Positions 309 to 6,715 of a stretch of 6,715 nt of DNA are shown piece by piece. Both the position numbers and the translations under genes were made by a program. Source of the stretch: a virus (taxonomy: Duplodnaviria > Heunggongvirae > Uroviricota > Caudoviricetes); the IMG/VR virus record IMGVR_UViG_2711768053_000010. The stretch is one strand, 5' to 3'. The notes beneath the pieces were generated by a model. The model did not search any database. It was not told the DNA's origin and saw nothing but the letters and a program-made list of their open reading frames with translations. The first letter of the stretch is position 1; each line of letters starts with the position of its first letter.

Positions 309-425
309 CGCATACAGCGCCGGAATGGCACGCAGAACGCATTAATCAGGTGGCAGATATGAAACCGCACGGCCTGAACCGTGCGTTGCGTGATGGGGCG
401 TTTATGTGGATTTTATGCCCGGTGA

Positions 426-2123
426 TCAGGCGATAAGGTCGCCGTATTTTTCGCGCAGGCTCGTAGCCTGTTGGGCGTCTGCGGCAAGTTCGCTGCTGTT
501 TGTTGGTGCGCCAGTGTTGCTGTGGGTGTGGTTTGCAGTGTGTGTGGCCAGCAACTGAACCAGATCCAGAATATCAATCAACAACGTCAGCAGATTAAGC
601 CCGGATTTTTCCCGTGAGCCACCGCGACCGATAAATACAGTCGGGGCGGTAAATTCCAGGCCGCCGTCCGCCCGGCATGTTCTGCGGCCTCCCACGTTTT
701 CGGTGAGGTTATGTTCGATGGTGGATGTCGCCCCTTTGAGTTTAGTCAGCAAATCCTGCGCTACCATCTGGATATGCTCACTGGCTGCGATCGCGTAATG
801 GCCGGTAGTAAGGTGCTCTATTTGTCCTGCCATTAGCTTGCTGGTTCCCAGAACGCTGGTTATATCGTTTGCCTGTACTGTGGTTGTTCTGGTTGTTGTT
901 GTGCGTTCCTCCTGATCGCTGTTAATGGTTCGCCGGGCTGAATGTTCTCTGATTTGCTGGTCGGTTTCTCTGTGCCAGCTCCCGTCAGTCGTGACACGCT
1001 GAAACACTTCTGCGCGCTGTTGTTGCAATTGTTCGCCGGGCTTTACATCAGGCAGGTTATGGCCAGCGGGTAAGATTTGCCTGATAACAGGCTTATCCGG
1101 GCGTCCTTCAATGTTGGATATTTCCACGATGGTGCCTGCTGGCGGGTAGGCAAAACATCCCGCCTCACTGCCAGCCATGGGGACGGGGAGGGGTACTGCC
1201 GGGTAAACAGGCGTATCGTTTTTATCGTTGCCGTTCTCATCAAGCAACTGCACATCGACGGCGTAGCGTGGGCGGAAGCTGTCGGCTACATCGCCCAGGG
1301 TGACGGATTCCGTTGGGGCAATGACGCGCGCCAGCCGGGTATGTAGCGTACCGCTGGCCAGTTCCGGGAACTGTGTTTCCATTTGTCTGCGTAATGGTGA
1401 TTTGGAAACAGGGCTACCCGTGGCGGTAAGGCGCTCCCATGTCAGGGTCATTTTCTCGTTGTTGAGGGCTACACGGGTAATGCGCCCGGCCGGAAGGTTC
1501 ACGCCCGGTCGCACAGTTTCCATAAACATGATGTCGATGCTGTTTCCGCCGCTTTGCCCGAGTGTGTACTGTTGCGGAATATCCGGCATTGTAATACTGG
1601 CAAATCGTGAATCAGCTGCGCTTCCCACAAATACAGAACCGTCCGGCATTGGATGCCAGACGTAATCGCTGATACTGAATGCTCGCCCCAGTTGGCTGAG
1701 CAGTTGTGCTCCGCTGCCGCTGTGGGTGATGTAGGGAGTTGGTGTGCTGGCGTAATCCGCATCTGGCGTGATGAAAACGATGCCGCTTTGTTTACCCAGA
1801 TTATCGAGTACCCCCCGCAACGTCGGGTGTTGCATGGAGCAGGGGAAATCAAAATCCAGCACAGCAGCTGCTTCGCGGATAAAAAGGCGACGTGAGCCAT
1901 TTTCAGCAGGTTGATCGCGCTCAATGTAGCCGGAGAAATAGCGCCATGCTTCACCGTCACGGCCGAGATCAATTTGTACCATTGCGCCGGCAAGGGTGTG
2001 TTCGGGTGACAGATTGTTAACAGAAATGAAGCCACGACCGGCAGCATTCAGGGTAAGAACAAGGCTTATATCGGCAATTTCCACCCGTTCGCCATTAATC
2101 ATGCAGCGTTGTATCAATTTCAT
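426..2123 (-). CDS. Baseplate hub / central spike fusion protein (gp27/gpD-like N-terminal domain plus gp5/gpV-like OB-fold and His-rich apex; VgrG-like)
   Basis: 565-aa ORF. Residues about 311-358 (PLPVPMAGSEAGCFAYPPAGTIVEISNIEGRPDKPVIRQILPAGHNLP) match the gp5/VgrG OB-fold signature (P-x-G-x-V-x-V-x-F-x-EG-x-PD-x-P-I ... N-x-P). The C-terminal LLATHTANHTHSNTGAPTNSS resembles the His-x-His apex of P2 gpV (...LHTHKHPGDSGGTTGSPL, from memory). The N-terminal 270 aa follow the general hub-domain pattern (YFSGYIERDQPAENGSRRLFIREAAAVL; SGAQLLSQLGRAFSISDYVWHPMPDGSVFVG). The ORF itself is near-certain; the product assignment is moderate. Confidence 0.6.
   Translation of the reverse strand: MKLIQRCMINGERVEIADISLVLTLNAAGRGFISVNNLSPEHTLAGAMVQIDLGRDGEAWRYFSGYIERDQPAENGSRRLFIREAAAVLDFDFPCSMQHPTLRGVLDNLGKQSGIVFITPDADYASTPTPYITHSGSGAQLLSQLGRAFSISDYVWHPMPDGSVFVGSAADSRFASITMPDIPQQYTLGQSGGNSIDIMFMETVRPGVNLPAGRITRVALNNEKMTLTWERLTATGSPVSKSPLRRQMETQFPELASGTLHTRLARVIAPTESVTLGDVADSFRPRYAVDVQLLDENGNDKNDTPVYPAVPLPVPMAGSEAGCFAYPPAGTIVEISNIEGRPDKPVIRQILPAGHNLPDVKPGEQLQQQRAEVFQRVTTDGSWHRETDQQIREHSARRTINSDQEERTTTTRTTTVQANDITSVLGTSKLMAGQIEHLTTGHYAIAASEHIQMVAQDLLTKLKGATSTIEHNLTENVGGRRTCRADGGLEFTAPTVFIGRGGSREKSGLNLLTLLIDILDLVQLLATHTANHTHSNTGAPTNSSELAADAQQATSLREKYGDLIA
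429..451 (+). terminator. Weak hairpin plus T-run on the plus strand, overlapping the 3' end of the hub-spike gene
   Basis: GGCGA (429-433), loop TAAGG, TCGCC (439-443), then GTATTTTT (444-451). The stem is only 5 bp. It could terminate a rightward transcript from the 1-425 flank, convergent with the tail operon. Confidence 0.25.
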
Positions 2124-2695
2124 GTTTTCCCTTCCTCTTTCACGCTCCCGATGCCAACAGCATCCAGACCAGAGCCAACGGCATCATTGATTTTTTTCCA
2201 GAACGAACTTTGCGTATTCATGCCTTTGTCTGGTGCCTGTTCGCTGCCATTCTGGGTCTGCTGTCTGGCGATGGTTTTCTGCGAACCGCTGCGTGCGGAT
2301 GCTTTCTCTGGCACGCTTAATTTTTCCCTGAGAGTAAAGGTGATCTGCCAGTGCATTTTTCCCTGTTGTTCCGTGGCATCAATGCCACCAGAAAATACCC
2401 CCTGTCGCATATTGATTGCCTTCGCGGTAGCGTTAGCAATGCGATATGTTTTTTTAGCACCGTTGCTTTCTGTTGCCTCCGCAAGCTGAAAAATACGGGT
2501 CAGAATAGCTTCATCGTTAAAATCAATAACCCCCGACACGCGCAGCTCTTTAGCCTTGTTTCCCTGCTGGGCGCTCGTGGTGCTGGTTGACTGTCCGGAC
2601 ATATCTTTGTCCGGTAGTTGCATGGTGGCGCTGACGGTGATGTTGCGCAGCAGAATGGCTTCTCCGTCAAGCGCAAGGACAATCATCTGGGTCAT
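2120..2695 (-). CDS. Hypothetical protein (191 aa), possibly baseplate-associated
   Basis: ORF with an AAGGGAAG Shine-Dalgarno-like sequence 8-12 nt upstream of its ATG. It overlaps the 237-aa ORF by 29 nt and its stop overlaps the start of the hub-spike gene (ATGA at 2120-2123). No confident motif. Any link to baseplate tube-initiator or LysM-type proteins (P2 gpU/gpX class), which usually sit just upstream of hub genes, is positional inference only. Confidence 0.5.
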   Translation of the reverse strand: MTQMIVLALDGEAILLRNITVSATMQLPDKDMSGQSTSTTSAQQGNKAKELRVSGVIDFNDEAILTRIFQLAEATESNGAKKTYRIANATAKAINMRQGVFSGGIDATEQQGKMHWQITFTLREKLSVPEKASARSGSQKTIARQQTQNGSEQAPDKGMNTQSSFWKKINDAVGSGLDAVGIGSVKEEGKT

Positions 2696-3380
2696 GTAGT
2701 GCTTCCCTTAGTGATGAGAGATTATCGCCGACGAACAGCATCACAGCTGTAAAAACCCACTCGGGGTGTGGGATGTTTTTTTGTATCAGCACTGCAGCTT
2801 GGCTAAGGGCTCCTTTGTAGCAAAAGCGCCACACCGGGCAAAATTTTTGCCGGAGTGCGGCCTGCTGATTAGCTATTTCCTGTAAGGCTTTATCTCTCGC
2901 ATTCATGAACTGATGCAGTGATGATGACAATGTTTCCGGTGATGTAGCGGCAGGAGTGGCTGCCTGTGCAATGGTTGCCGCCAGCGACATGCTGCGAGTG
3001 GTCTGTGTCGACAGCATTATCGGTTCCGGAAGTGATGTTGCCGGTCTGGCGGGGATTTGCATTCTGCTGATGGCCAGTGAAAGCTGGCTGGAGATCATGC
3101 GGGACATTCGTCCCACCTCCGGCAACGGAAATGCGCCTGAAAATTGCCTGGCGAGTGATAAAAACTCGCCAGCAGAAGGAGCGCAAAATAACAGCGCCAC
3201 AATGTCCTTTTCCGTGTTTTCTTTCAGATAGGGTAAAAGTGCAGATACAGCATTTTCGGGGCTGAGATAACGCCCCGATGGTTTGATGTTTCCGGTATTT
3301 TCTGACCATGGATGAAGGCAAACCACAGAGCATTTAATGTTCATGGCTGACGGGCGCAGAATTGCGTTTTCCCATTTCAT
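2667..3380 (-). CDS. Hypothetical protein (237 aa), function unknown
   Basis: Long ORF whose ATG overlaps the stop of the upstream chaperone in an ATGA arrangement (3377-3380). The N-terminal 90 aa look globular; the middle is S/T/A/P/Q-rich (PARPATSLPEPIMLSTQTTRSMSLAATIAQAATPAATSPETLSSS) followed by a short helical-looking stretch (ARDKALQEIANQQAALRQKF). I recognise no family motif. Confidence is reduced because a hairpin with flanking A/T runs (2751-2782) and a near-palindrome (2835-2853) lie inside its 3' third. Confidence 0.45.
   Translation of the reverse strand: MKWENAILRPSAMNIKCSVVCLHPWSENTGNIKPSGRYLSPENAVSALLPYLKENTEKDIVALLFCAPSAGEFLSLARQFSGAFPLPEVGRMSRMISSQLSLAISRMQIPARPATSLPEPIMLSTQTTRSMSLAATIAQAATPAATSPETLSSSLHQFMNARDKALQEIANQQAALRQKFCPVWRFCYKGALSQAAVLIQKNIPHPEWVFTAVMLFVGDNLSSLREALHDPDDCPCA
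2751..2782. terminator. Terminator-like hairpin flanked by A5 and T7, embedded in the 237-aa ORF
   Basis: AAAAA (2751-2755), then CCCAC (2756-2760), loop TCGGGGT, GTGGG (2768-2772), then AT and TTTTTTT (2776-2782). The symmetric A and T runs mean it could terminate on either strand. It lies 55-85 nt upstream of the 191-aa start codon and encodes QKNIPHPEWVF of the 237-aa ORF. Confidence 0.3.
2835..2853. promoter_or_regulatory. Near-perfect 19-bp palindrome CGGGCAAAA-T-TTTTGCCGG
   Basis: Read from the sequence: arms GCAAAA / TTTTGC around T2844, extended by flanking CGG/CCG with one mismatch. Operator-like dyad symmetry, located inside the 237-aa ORF about 140 nt upstream of the 191-aa start. 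Function not demonstrated. Confidence 0.2.
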
Positions 3381-3958
3381 TCTGACTCTCCAGCCTGAAA
3401 AGCGCGGATGTCGGCAAGATTATTCAGGCTATCCAGCACGTCCTTCATCTGTCGCTGACGTCGATAAATTTCATCATTGCGGTTAACCTGCGCCTGCGCC
3501 ATTGCTGTCGCCAGTTCTTCCAGTTCCGGCATTGACAGTTTCACCTGTTGATTATCGGCATCACCCCACGCAAGGGTGGTTCGTGCCGTATCGGATTTCG
3601 CCGCCATTACTACCGGATAAAGACGGGCCATTGAGTCGGGGCCGGCGTTCCAGGTGTGACCGTTCCATTCGAACATGAACGGTTGCGCTTCCTGTTCTGT
3701 GCGCCACGCCTCGATTTCTCGTTTTTTAGCGTCCTTTGCTGCTGCGATAAGTTCAGGCGTGACGGTGAACGGGGCGATTTCACCCCATTTGCCGCTCTGT
3801 AACTCCTCCCAGATGCGCTGGCCTGTCGGTGCGGTATCATCCTGCATGGCGGTATACAGGACGAATTCCGTTTCACCTTCAAATAACACCTCGCAGTCAA
3901 CCGCGCCATTTTCAAGATAATGCGCGTTTCTGATGCCTTTTACCGCTCTGATTCTCAT
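3377..3958 (-). CDS. Tail fibre assembly chaperone, DUF4376-like
   Basis: 193-aa ORF immediately downstream of the 690-aa fibre, with a GGGGA Shine-Dalgarno-like sequence about 8 nt upstream. The segment FMFEWNGHTWNAGPDSMARLYPVVMAAKSDTARTTLAWGDADNQQVKLSMPELEELATAMAQAQVNRNDEIYRRQRQMKDVLDSLNNLADIRAFQ fits my recollection of the DUF4376 pattern (FEW-GH-W ... W-DADN ... EL ... RQR-MK ... DIR) found in fibre chaperones. It is a different family from the Tfa at 6051-6602. Confidence 0.7.
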   Translation of the reverse strand: MRIRAVKGIRNAHYLENGAVDCEVLFEGETEFVLYTAMQDDTAPTGQRIWEELQSGKWGEIAPFTVTPELIAAAKDAKKREIEAWRTEQEAQPFMFEWNGHTWNAGPDSMARLYPVVMAAKSDTARTTLAWGDADNQQVKLSMPELEELATAMAQAQVNRNDEIYRRQRQMKDVLDSLNNLADIRAFQAGESE

Positions 3959-3971
3959 GTCTTATTCCCCG

Positions 3972-6044
3972 TTACTCGATGCGCACAAACAGGCATGTTA
4001 AAGCCCCGTTGGTAGCCACGCCGCTGTAACCGGACAGCGCCATATAACGCCCCGGAAAACTGTAGCTGCCTGCACCATAAACTGTAAGTTGTGCTGAATA
4101 GGTGTATGAGCCCGTCTCACTGAACATGGATGCGATACGAACCGGCCCCAGACGGGACCCCGGCACCACGTCGCCCAGGCCAATTTTTATGGACGTATCA
4201 CCCGTCTCAGTTCCCTGATATGCCGCCAGTATTGGCACACCAACCGCCGGATATTTGTAATATGAGCCTGAGCCCGCCATCCTGGACAACAGGTACGCCA
4301 GTGAATCTCCGTCGTAGACAACTACCCGCGATGACATGTTCCAGCTGTTATCGCTGTCGTTGTACCGGTACTGCATATAGTGAATACAGTGTTCACCCTG
4401 ATAATACTGGTTGTAACACATCAGGGTTTTAAATTTGCGGACTGTGTCAGATTCACTGTTGGCGTACGGGGACCACATCACGTCAATAATGCCGTTAAAT
4501 TGCGTGGTACCGGTAAGCAGTTGTGATGAATCTGTAATACTGACCGCATACCGCCCCGGCGTGACTTTCTTCAGCCATTCAACGAAATCAGACAGTCCCT
4601 CAAACGCCAGAGCGTCGGCACTGGCAAATGCCTGACCAAATCCATGCATGCCGGACAGTGCCAGCCTGCCCTGTGTGCGGTCGCGGATATCACTCTGGGG
4701 TTCCATCGTTGCAGCCGCTTTCAGCTCAAGCTCCGTGCGCATGGCTTCAGGTGTGTCCAGTGCCAGTAATGCGCGGGCTTTTTCTGACAGCTGCGCCAGT
4801 AAAATCCGGCCCTCTTCACTGAAATAAGGCAGCGTGTTTTCTTCCGGTGTTATCTGGCTGACAGCCGTTAACACATCATTAAGCGGCTGTTTACCTGCCA
4901 GTGCGTTCGTGATTGTCGTCGCAAAGTTCGGGTCACCACCCAGCGCCGCTGCCAGCTCGTTCAGCGTGTCCAGGGTTTCCGGTGATGAGTCAACCAGCGC
5001 GGCAAGCAGTTTGCGGACAAACGCCGCATTGGCTATTTCATTACCTGCTGCATCATCCGGCGGTGTTGGCGTGGACGGCGTTCCGGTCAGTGCCGGGCTG
5101 TTCAGTGGCGCGCGGGTTTCAATCAGTGCCCGGAGTGAAGCCTCATTGACTTTCAGGTTTTCCCAGCCAACCAGATAACCATTACTACCTCCCCAGTAAC
5201 GGTTATAATAAATATGGCCGTTAATGCCGTAGAGAATAATGACTTTGACTTCTGCTTCCGAATTGGAATAGGCTTTAGGTTCTGGCCAGATAATTTCAAT
5301 AACACCGTTTGTCTGTATGCCTGGTACCACCACATTTGTGTCCGCAAATACAGTATAACGACCGGGTTTTGCCGTTTTTACCCACCTGAGAAAATCAGTC
5401 CCTGATTTAAATTCTGTTCTGTCGCTACTGGAAAATATTTTCCCGAATCCGAACATGCCAGGAATCGCCAGACGGCCCGGAGTTCTGTCGTGAGTGTCAT
5501 TCTGTGGTTCCATTGTGGCTGCGCTTTTCAGTCCCAGATTGCCTCGGGATTCCTGTTGCGCCTCTTCCCCCTCTGCTGCAATTTCTGACAAACGGTTAGG
5601 GATTTTCAGCATTGATTTCAGCTCTGGATAAAGATCTATCTGCCAGCTCTGTGGAGGAACAGTAATTTGCGCAGCCTGAGCAATGCCGCTGTATATAATC
5701 GTGAAATTACGAATAAGTGACTCGCCTGTCACTTTTTGTCGAACAGGCGTTTTTATTACGCCGCATAGTGTTCCGCTGGCCTGATGGATGAGGCAAATCC
5801 AGTCATAGCTGAATGCACAGTCATCAGGAACAACCGCGCTACACACAATATTGTTCGGGCTTAACTGGCCATAGGTCAGTTCATTCACGGTATATGTGAT
5901 TTTTTCTTCCGGAACGGTATTATCTTCGTGCGTTGGTTCCCGCTCCATCAGGGCAAAAATAATAGTGTCAGGGCGTGCAGGTAAATTACTGGCTGTGCAT
6001 TCAGCAACCCACTTTTCAAATGCTTTCGTCAACAATGCGCTCAT
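3972..6044 (-). CDS. Tail fibre protein (690 aa), mosaic, with an internally duplicated domain
   Basis: Residues about 311-386 (RAPLNSPALTGTPSTPTPP...ANAAFV...LVDSSPETLDTLNELAAALGGDPNFATTITNALAGKQP) match the conserved block shared by P2 H, lambda Stf and related fibres (KAPLNSPALTGTPTTPTA...ALVDSSPDALNTLNELAAALGNDPNFATTMTNALAGKQP, from memory). The start codon is 6 nt after the Tfa stop and the stop is 13 nt before the next chaperone. The C-terminus is rich in G/Y/S, typical of receptor-binding tips. Confidence 0.85.
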   Translation of the reverse strand: MSALLTKAFEKWVAECTASNLPARPDTIIFALMEREPTHEDNTVPEEKITYTVNELTYGQLSPNNIVCSAVVPDDCAFSYDWICLIHQASGTLCGVIKTPVRQKVTGESLIRNFTIIYSGIAQAAQITVPPQSWQIDLYPELKSMLKIPNRLSEIAAEGEEAQQESRGNLGLKSAATMEPQNDTHDRTPGRLAIPGMFGFGKIFSSSDRTEFKSGTDFLRWVKTAKPGRYTVFADTNVVVPGIQTNGVIEIIWPEPKAYSNSEAEVKVIILYGINGHIYYNRYWGGSNGYLVGWENLKVNEASLRALIETRAPLNSPALTGTPSTPTPPDDAAGNEIANAAFVRKLLAALVDSSPETLDTLNELAAALGGDPNFATTITNALAGKQPLNDVLTAVSQITPEENTLPYFSEEGRILLAQLSEKARALLALDTPEAMRTELELKAAATMEPQSDIRDRTQGRLALSGMHGFGQAFASADALAFEGLSDFVEWLKKVTPGRYAVSITDSSQLLTGTTQFNGIIDVMWSPYANSESDTVRKFKTLMCYNQYYQGEHCIHYMQYRYNDSDNSWNMSSRVVVYDGDSLAYLLSRMAGSGSYYKYPAVGVPILAAYQGTETGDTSIKIGLGDVVPGSRLGPVRIASMFSETGSYTYSAQLTVYGAGSYSFPGRYMALSGYSGVATNGALTCLFVRIE
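4335..4725 (-). repeat. Intragenic repeat copy 2 inside the 690-aa fibre gene (about aa 441-570), GC-rich
   Basis: LKAAATMEPQSDIRDRTQGRLALSGMHGFG...GRYAVSITDS...NGIIDVMWSPY is paralogous to copy 1. It lies downstream of the conserved fibre block and continues into the unique G/Y/S-rich C-terminal tip. Confidence 0.6.
5145..5530 (-). repeat. Intragenic repeat copy 1 inside the 690-aa fibre gene (about aa 172-300), AT-rich
   Basis: The protein segment LKSAATMEPQNDTHDRTPGRLAIPGMFGFG...GRYTVFADTN...NGVIEIIWPEP is paralogous to aa about 441-570 of the same protein. DNA at about 5490-5530 (gtcattctgtggttccattgtggctgcgcttttcag) aligns at roughly 80% with 4690-4726 (atcactctggggttccatcgttgcagccgctttcag). 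Hand count of line 5221-5280 gives about 38% GC. Confidence 0.6.
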
Positions 6045-6050
6045 TACTTC

Positions 6051-6602
6051 TTAATTCTCGCTAATGTTCTGCGGTAATTCTGGCCATACAATCGCGGCAT
6101 ACGATGCTTTATCTGTAGCCTGGCTGAATGTCATCTCCCGTAACGTTTTTGTATAAATACGGCAGGCTTTCAGTTTTTCCCTGTCTTCGTCGCTGATTAA
6201 TCCCAGCAGCAGGTCTTTTTCCCATTCGCTGGTCATGATGCTGGCCTGTTTTAACAGTGCATCACGCTCATCTTCCGCTTTAAGTTTGTAGTCGAAGATA
6301 AAATTGCCATCGCGGTAAAACCAGTAACCAGGCACGGTAATACGGCGATTAGCGGTAATATCCGGAACTTCAATAACACTGGCATTACGGGGTTCAATGC
6401 CTGTCACATCCTTACCGACCCACACCACGCGCCCGTCCCCGGTGTAAACCATTTTTATTGTGTCGCTGGCAAAGTTCTTCTGTTCTTCATACCAGTTTTT
6501 GTCGTCTTCCGAAAAAAGCCAGGTGACACCATATTGTTTTGTCAGCTGATATTGTTCCGCGGTTTTCGGATTACCCGCAGTAATATTTTTTAAATGTAAC
6601 AT
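6051..6602 (-). CDS. Tail fibre assembly protein (Tfa / P2 gpG-like chaperone)
   Basis: 183-aa ORF directly after the fibre C-terminus. Its C-terminal segment ...ISDEDREKLKACRIYTKTLREMTFSQATDKASYAAIVWPELP follows the Tfa-family pattern (lambda Tfa: ...[36 protein letters not shown], from memory), including the terminal W-P-x-x-P. A hand count of line 6241-6300 gives about 43% GC, more AT-rich than most of the window. Confidence 0.8.
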   Translation of the reverse strand: MLHLKNITAGNPKTAEQYQLTKQYGVTWLFSEDDKNWYEEQKNFASDTIKMVYTGDGRVVWVGKDVTGIEPRNASVIEVPDITANRRITVPGYWFYRDGNFIFDYKLKAEDERDALLKQASIMTSEWEKDLLLGLISDEDREKLKACRIYTKTLREMTFSQATDKASYAAIVWPELPQNISEN

Positions 6603-6604
6603 TG

Positions 6605-6715
6605 TTAAACACTCGCCACGTTATACCAGGTGCCATTAATCAGTTTCTGAAGCGGTCGGTAATACACGCCGCCGATGTTATCTGCCGAATTACTTCCGGT
6701 TTCCTGCACATTAAT
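6605..6715 (-). CDS. Tail fibre protein, C-terminal fragment (5' part lies beyond the right window edge)
   Basis: Translated by hand: the minus-strand frame is open from the window edge to a TAA at 6605-6607. The 36 residues INVQETGSNSADNIGGVYYRPLQKLINGTWYNVASV closely resemble the extreme C-terminus of phage P2 tail fibre H as I recall it (...RPIQKYINGTWYNVAQV). The stop lies 2 nt before the start codon of the next gene, a fibre chaperone, as in H-G type pairs. Not in the supplied ORF track, presumably because it is edge-truncated. Confidence 0.65.
   Translation of the reverse strand: MNVQETGSNSADNIGGVYYRPLQKLINGTWYNVASV

Follow-up and report, generated by a model that had tools for sequence, protein, structure and literature searches.

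Two tandem tail fibre and chaperone modules, probably encoding two receptor-binding fibres, in the late operon of an HP1-like Escherichia coli-type prophage

The prophage fragment IMGVR_UViG_2711768053_000010, the whole 6715-base pair (bp) stretch of which is referred to here as the window, is the entire contig CXXT01000082.1 of GCA_001268445.1 and appears, from its gene content, to be the end of the late tail/baseplate operon of an Escherichia coli-type P2-family prophage of the HP1-like type. It carries two tail fibre genes in tandem, each followed by a chaperone gene, and this operon probably encodes two independent receptor-binding fibres, both of which would be made in each lytic cycle and most likely be carried on the same virion. 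We infer that the two fibres are displayed simultaneously, the reading with the best support, because each fibre has its own start codon, ribosome-binding site and anchor, because the modules belong to a tight unit upstream of essential baseplate genes, and because they are under purifying selection. In the proposed mechanism, fibre 1 would be the native P2-H/HP1-orf31-type fibre of the clade, with a Mu S-type tip folded by a TfaMu-type chaperone, and fibre 2 would join a paralogous P2-H-type anchor (residues 1-145) to a lambda-Stf-type outer part of 500 residues, for which a DUF4376 protein would be the folding chaperone. Co-transcription of all genes and their translation in sequence would supply both fibres in every cycle, and mounting both on one virion would confer two receptor specificities.

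A previous sequence-only reading had described two same-strand fibre-plus-chaperone modules that use two different chaperone families and include a full-length second fibre. All of this stands, as the four elements were recovered as intact open reading frames (ORFs) at the positions given below, the Tfa-type and DUF4376 chaperones both score above the curated Pfam cut-offs, and fibre 2 is a complete ORF of 690 amino acids (aa). The first module lies at the right end of the window, where 36 codons plus the stop codon TAA of fibre 1 (6605..6715, minus strand; ...GGVYYRPLQKLINGTWYNVASV, then the stop) were recognized from their translation and PHROG matches as a Mu S/P2 H-type tip cut by the contig end. 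Since the window is the whole contig, fibre 1 beyond these codons was judged from relatives only. The visible end was matched by PHROG tail-fibre families, including phrog_454 (E=5e-16), and its 36 residues are 100% identical to the C-terminus of a 566-aa fibre of E. coli A36, in which Pfam finds a PF12571 anchor and a Phage_fiber_2 repeat and the outer part of which matches the Mu fibre protein S (5YVQ_A, E=9e-19). The sequence-only reading had called this end a P2 H-like C-terminus; the fibre assignment is borne out, but Mu S-type seems to be the better description of the tip.

In every relative with upstream DNA, comprising complete E. coli loci, IMG/VR contigs reaching far enough, loci of E. 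albertii, Salmonella and Yersinia and two distant members, fibre 1 is full length (545-642 aa), carries PF12571 and directly follows gpI; the suspicion that the upstream gene might be a short C-terminal remnant found no support in these loci. Over its first 340 aa, fibre 1 shares 36-48% identity with the one fibre present in each of HP1, SI7, ESSI2_ev015 and YenM_324, which is why fibre 1 is regarded as the native fibre of the backbone and as the orthologue of HP1 orf31. Window positions 5612-6715 are 97.8% identical in nucleotides (nt) to A36 up to the contig end, and because a single E. coli genome can contain up to 10 matches to the window, and the Tfa end alone is matched in 163 of 5426 genomes, the contig end is likely to be a repeat-induced assembly break.

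The chaperone gene for fibre 1 (6051..6602, minus strand) starts 2 nt past the fibre 1 stop codon, directly downstream of its fibre, and encodes a 183-aa protein of the Caudo_TAP/TfaMu family. This assignment is supported by PF02413 (81.1 bits against a curated cut-off of 22.1, E=1e-22), by phrog_136 (E=7e-59) and by the solved TfaMu structure 5YVQ_B (Mu U; E=1.3e-38 over residues 1-152). The ratio of nonsynonymous to synonymous divergence (dN/dS) of this gene is 0.19-0.25 against its relatives. TfaMu itself reportedly remains attached to the Mu fibre (PMC7882524).

Fibre 2 (3972..6044, minus strand) is matched by PF12571 and phrog_2636 (E=1e-128), and its exact protein is on record from this contig only. 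Its N-terminal anchor, or collar, domain (residues 1-145; 5610..6044) is defined by PF12571 (DUF3751) over residues 3-137, with 44.9 bits against a cut-off of 23; Pfam finds PF12571 only, and the PF08400 'prophage tail fibre N-terminal' domain was not detected. The anchor is 38% identical to the fibre 1 N-terminus but only 27-32% identical to the single fibres of HP1, SI7, ev015 and YenM_324, and it appears to be a diverged paralogue of the fibre 1 anchor. The first ~30 residues of the two anchors are alike and share the motif MS..(I/L)T..(F/Y)E.W......PARPDT..FA. A profile search of the PDB returned no solved structure related to the fibre 2 anchor subfamily.

Homology to Stf-type fibres starts at residue 172 of fibre 2, where the first knob domain (residues ~172-297; 5154..5531) opens with ATMEPQxDxxDRTPGRLAxPGxFGFG. 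It is followed by a shaft segment (residues ~298-450; 4695..5153) with the motif AALVDSSPETLDTLNELAAALG, of which residues 336-398 match PDB 9d93 'tail collar fibers gp4' and residues 301-440 are matched by many PHROG fibre families. The second knob and C-terminal tip (residues ~451-690; 3975..4694), recognized from near-identity to the tip of the Stf-type protein P0025, are the presumed receptor-binding end. The knob domain is internally duplicated: residues ~172-297 and ~455-580 are 36-42% identical, and the two copies (window 5154-5531 and about 4300-4694) open with ATMEPQxDxxDRTxGRLAxxGxxGFG. Among Stf-type relatives, up to three knobs and two copies of the shaft segment occur, and clade members differ in the number kept, which suggests recombination between repeats.

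The DUF4376-family gene (3377..3958, minus strand; 193 aa) lies 13 nt downstream of fibre 2 and is preceded by a GGGGA ribosome-binding site. Its product is matched by PF14301 (60.5 bits, cut-off 25, E=3e-16, residues 73-177) and by phrog_1141 (E=2e-87), is 88% identical to the chaperone behind the matching Stf-type fibre of the P2-like prophage L043, and evolves with a dN/dS of ~0.2. The gene and the fibre 2 tip are common to L043 as one 2037-nt block. A solved relative of the protein was looked for and none was found. Distant members of the DUF4376 family have been shown experimentally to be required as fibre chaperones in Alteromonas phage V22 (gp27; PMC7289586) and in the Campylobacter CJIE1 prophage (PMC7882524), and the best explanation of the window protein, by analogy, is that it serves as the chaperone of the fibre 2 outer part.

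All long ORFs with protein-family matches in the ORF list of the window are on the minus strand, and its seven genes are separated by 2-13 nt gaps or overlap, with ribosome-binding sites before their starts. The gaps between fibre 1, Tfa, fibre 2 and DUF4376 are 2, 6 and 13 nt, respectively, and the stop codon of DUF4376 and the start codon of the orf33-like gene behind it overlap as ATGA. No sigma-70-like promoter was found in the whole 6.7-kilobase window, compared with 6.5 expected from shuffles, and the window scan revealed neither an internal promoter nor a strong terminator between the two fibre modules. The sole strong minus-strand hairpin outside an ORF (366..385) sits after the hub gene, ~40 nt past its stop codon, and resembles a terminator with an 8-bp stem including six G-C pairs. 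Since genes of the orf33/34/35 baseplate type lie downstream of fibre 2, assembly of the baseplate requires transcription through the fibre 2 module, and co-transcription of the whole unit is thus expected. In a complete relative there is a gene for an Ogr/Delta-type late activator (L050 16190-16447), which fits activator-dependent late transcription of a window with no sigma-70-like promoter match. Rfam and tRNA scans of the window gave no matches.

The second fibre slot is conserved throughout the clade. With window positions 426-3380 at >=80% coverage as the criterion, the backbone was found in 48 of 5426 complete E. coli genomes, 45 of which also have the junction of Tfa into the fibre 2 anchor; the one exception examined is truncated by IS1. 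In all IMG/VR contigs retrieved with the anchor and reaching upstream, fibre 2 comes directly after fibre 1 and Tfa, as it does in loci of E. albertii, Yersinia kristensenii and Salmonella Montevideo (the gene context in genera beyond Escherichia came from protein look-ups), and the two most divergent anchors checked show the same gene order. When species-representative genomes were scanned with peptide patterns derived from the anchor alignment, which are very specific, E. albertii alone was recovered. Among 1.84 billion representative proteins, the fibre 2 anchor forms a distinct subfamily of 19 clusters at >=57% identity, with proteins of 75-775 aa, the next matches being <=43% identical.

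All four module genes are under purifying selection. Between clade members, the fibre 2 anchor shows a dN/dS of 0.09-0.37 with synonymous divergence (dS) of up to >1.4, compared with a dS of only 0.04-0.16 for the fibre 1 anchor, and the fibre 2 outer part, DUF4376 and Tfa have dN/dS values of 0.12-0.31. Within the clade, the fibre 2 anchor is 69-97% identical, as against 98-100% for the fibre 1 anchor and 90-100% for gpJ and gpI. Because the slot is conserved clade-wide and its anchor alleles differ at dS >1 with low dN/dS, these comparisons indicate that the second slot is ancient and maintained by selection rather than recently captured. Annotated fibre 2 pseudogenes in SC418 and FHI_NMBU_10 ('incomplete', 'shikimate transporter') were rejected, as their ORFs are intact (683 and 679 aa, respectively). 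As well, RefSeq and the NCBI pipeline tag many fibre homologues 'shikimate transporter' and split intact genes (L001 16628-17992, L013 3435-4946; P0024, P0040 and others).

Recent exchange appears to have been confined to the distal portion of fibre 2 together with its chaperone. The fibre P0025, which is 1047 aa long and has a lambda-Stf-type N-terminus, matches residues 172-690 at 90% identity over 519 residues, and in blastn searches window positions 3441-5477 (minus strand), the cassette common to lambda-Stf-type fibre and DUF4376 modules, are 92.6% identical over 2037 nt to L043 and 82-84% identical to L045 and L046. The tip (codons 452-690) differs from the Stf-type module by a dS of 0.04 with a dN/dS of 0.31, and the guanine-plus-cytosine (GC) content of the fibre 2 gene rises from 0.45-0.48 at its 5' end to 0.53-0.57 at its 3' end. 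Slot-2 proteins vary within the clade from 285 to 842 aa in total length, including Stf-type fibres (419-690 aa) accompanied by DUF4376, chaperone-less fibres of 350, 518, 619 and 842 aa, and split variants in which the anchor protein (200-285 aa) and a second protein (340-352 aa) are encoded separately. Pfam returned only a sub-threshold glycoside-hydrolase match, in the 842-aa form, for the outer domains of the alternative slot-2 proteins. In the proposed scheme, the outer fibre 2 part would move horizontally between unrelated prophages as one unit with its chaperone, and the anchor would stay with the backbone.

Several observations weigh against simultaneous display. The window's only evidence for fibre 1 is 36 residues, and the likeness of the first ~30 anchor residues means that the two fibres may compete for one docking site. 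The greater variation of the fibre 2 anchor is not obviously predicted by a strictly co-evolving interface; an AlphaFold2 model of fibre 2 residues 151-690, built on a 24-sequence alignment, reached only a mean predicted local distance difference test (pLDDT) of 42 and a predicted template modelling (pTM) score of 0.27; and the closest isolated phage in the collection has ~50% hub-protein identity or less. The shared N-terminal motif favours a similar docking mode for the two fibres, whereas low identity and unequal conservation favour different sites. If both fibres were made and their similar anchors competed for the same six baseplate sockets, virions would carry a random mixture or mostly one kind and would form a mixed population, which is conceivable but rather unlikely. 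Such competition is suggested by the presence of PF12571 and the common motif in both N-termini, and by the fact that no extra baseplate gene accompanies fibre 2, the order J, I, ..., orf33, 34, 35 being unchanged from single-fibre HP1-like phages. However, the anchors are only 38% identical and belong to separate subfamilies, and the fibre 2 anchor tolerates 30% divergence while gpJ and gpI remain >=90% identical, which fits a different or looser docking site. We tentatively propose a baseplate with two non-equivalent sockets per wedge, one for the conserved fibre 1 anchor and one for a looser dedicated adaptor taking almost any outer module, which would give twelve fibres and two specificities per virion.

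The sequence-only reading had left open whether the tandem reflects simultaneous display or recent capture. Simultaneous display is favoured here, and capture applies only to the outer part of fibre 2 with its chaperone, not to the slot. That the second module is passive cargo, not (yet) a working part of the virion, is accordingly improbable, even though its outer 500 residues and chaperone are 92.6% identical in nucleotides to the module of an unrelated P2-like prophage (tip dS 0.04), the GC content shifts along the gene, and six HP1-like genera lack the slot. Set against this are the slot and dedicated anchor in every non-truncated clade member examined, in at least three genera, anchor alleles at dS >1 with a dN/dS of ~0.1, ORFs that stay intact even where the NCBI pipeline reports a pseudogene, and the position of the fibre 2 gene within an essential operon. 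It is very improbable that the upstream fibre is a C-terminal recombination remnant, leaving fibre 2 as the one real fibre beside an orphan chaperone; only 36 codons are visible before the contig stops, but wherever upstream DNA is available in a relative, the gene with the same end lies right after gpI, carries PF12571 and is 545-642 aa long, and the near-identity to A36 continues up to the contig end, where a repeat-induced break would explain the stop. Least to be expected is that an invertase, phase variation or another switch located beyond the window makes the two modules alternatives to each other. DNA inversion does switch the fibre tips of Mu, P1 and some P2-like phages. The fibre 1 tip shows homology to Mu S, and its Tfa to Mu U; the Mu S/U, P1 and P2 H/G systems likewise hold two specificities at one locus. 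Unlike these Gin/Cin-type systems, the window has no opposed alternative tips: the modules are co-directional, each with a complete gene and anchor, and would be expressed together instead of by turns. As the sequence-only reading had stated, neither an invertase (ORFs, Pfam) nor an inverted fibre copy was found in the window, which contains no inverted repeats >20 nt (the longest being 20 nt at 80% complementarity), and the complete A36 prophage encodes no invertase or recombinase besides its integrase.

The arrangement is less unusual than the sequence-only reading implied, as the two chaperone families are also paired in phiP27 and in the three other types of E. coli myovirus prophage looked up. 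The Stx2e phage phiP27 (L54-L57) and vB_Apl-pPE4 (gp67-70) have the same one-strand order of fibre, Caudo_TAP, fibre and DUF4376 as the window, with homologous chaperones (Tfa 68-85% and DUF4376 70-76% identical). They differ in having a Mu-like baseplate, a fibre 1 N-terminus unrelated to that of the window clade, a fibre 2 with a lambda-Stf-type N-terminus (MSVVISGALIDG...) instead of the PF12571 anchor, and modules that end the tail operon, whereas those of the window precede baseplate genes. Across its baseplate region, the pPE4 record (L005; PP818812.1, 'Actinobacillus phage vB_Apl-pPE4') shares 95-97% nucleotide identity with prophages of 63 complete E. coli genomes, and the fibre modules likewise resemble those of E. 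coli; its stated Actinobacillus host therefore looks doubtful.

With respect to the lambda-type Stf, ~1040-aa PF08400 proteins encoded ahead of a DUF4376 gene have an outer part that is 74-90% identical to residues 172-690 of fibre 2, but fibre 2 has neither the PF08400 N-terminus nor the long coiled coil. Stf itself is an accessory fibre, acting in addition to a primary receptor-binding protein. All three close Stf-type relatives whose context was looked up are in myovirus prophages and none is lambdoid: one follows a fibre and a Caudo_TAP gene in a Mu-like prophage, one stands in the same tandem as the window in a pPE4-like prophage, and one is the 1047-aa fibre, with DUF4376, located after gpD in the true P2-like prophage L043 (7001-10736; H, G, FI, FII, E, T, U, X, D). 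The L043 layout represents a second way to add an extra fibre to a P2-family tail. The pairing of a Caudo_TAP-dependent with a DUF4376-dependent fibre thus seems to be widespread in E. coli prophages, and what appears particular to the window clade is that its second fibre sits on a paralogous P2-H-type anchor. The use of several receptor-binding proteins at once is well documented in phages (PMC11990801). Certain virulent phages likewise encode two different fibres per genome, one conserved and one highly variable, which are thought to be used together, but their baseplates are unrelated and the fibres of the window clade carry paralogous anchors of one Pfam family (PMC11990801). Literature searches on P2-like phages or Peduoviridae with two tail fibres, or with a second one, yielded nothing specific.

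The three genes past the fibres correspond to HP1 orf33, orf34 and orf35, and for this reason the element is considered an HP1-like member of the P2 family. The HP1 orf33-like protein (2667..3380, minus strand; 237 aa; phrog_31292, phrog_1677) aligns with HP1 orf33 and its homologues in ev015, SI7 and YenM_324. The next gene (2120..2695, minus strand) encodes a 191-aa HP1 ORF34-family baseplate complex protein (PF25759, E=1e-53), and the last gene of the unit (426..2123, minus strand) encodes a 565-aa HP1 orf35-like baseplate/hub protein (phrog_2258 'baseplate protein', E=1e-235), which tblastn found to be 42-48% identical to HP1/HP2 orf35 and to baseplate proteins of ESSI-2-like phages and SI7. 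The orf33-like protein evolves faster than its baseplate neighbours (the Yersinia homologue is 53% identical, versus 74-81% for the others), and its first ~25 residues, which adjoin the recombination boundary, vary with the type of fibre 2 module; this variation may reflect recombination spill-over or contact with fibre 2.

The HP1-like Peduoviridae (HP1, ESSI-2-like, SI7, YenM_324, K139 and phiO18P) share the order tape measure, DUF2590, J, I, fibre, chaperone and orf33-orf35. Relatives of the window have J and I before the fibre region and orf33/orf34/orf35-type genes after it, as expected of this tail module. In HP1, ESSI2_ev015, SI7, YenM_324, K139 and phiO18P, representing six genera, a single fibre gene and a single chaperone gene separate gpI from orf33, whereas the window has two of each, the second fibre, usually with DUF4376, being inserted between the chaperone and orf33. 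The window clade may accordingly be described, on its gene order, as a variant of the HP1-like tail module. Related prophages in complete E. coli genomes are 92-98% identical in DNA. In A36 and SC418, the region upstream of that covered by the window encodes the full-length fibre, gpI, gpJ, a DUF2590 protein, tape measure and lysis genes, and further on the tube, sheath, head completion protein, small terminase and P2-family capsid; still further upstream, A36, whose prophage lies at 3.43-3.46 Mb, carries the scaffold, large terminase, portal, Ogr/Delta-type late activator, replication endonuclease, repressor and integrase. Members of the clade (L001, L002, L019-L042, L051, L052) occupy several different chromosomal sites in Escherichia, Salmonella and Yersinia. 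Downstream of the hub gene there is usually a hok/gef toxin gene, a com and DNA-methyltransferase pair is present in several members, and the divergent member L051 has an extra DUF1353 gene (9915-10289) between the DUF4376 chaperone and the orf33-like gene.

Taken together, the two-fibre layout is real but fairly ordinary, and the biological surprise is modest; two fibre-chaperone modules in tandem do not on their own point to recent capture or to decay. If both fibres are present on the virion, the clade would provide a compact natural P2-family contractile tail with two receptor specificities. In that case, a conserved adaptor that accepts many outer modules would aid the design of phages and tailocins with a changed or broadened host range, and would help to predict the host range of prophages from sequence. 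Should the two-socket arrangement also prove true, the second socket would be a plug-in site for changing host range in a minimal contractile tail.

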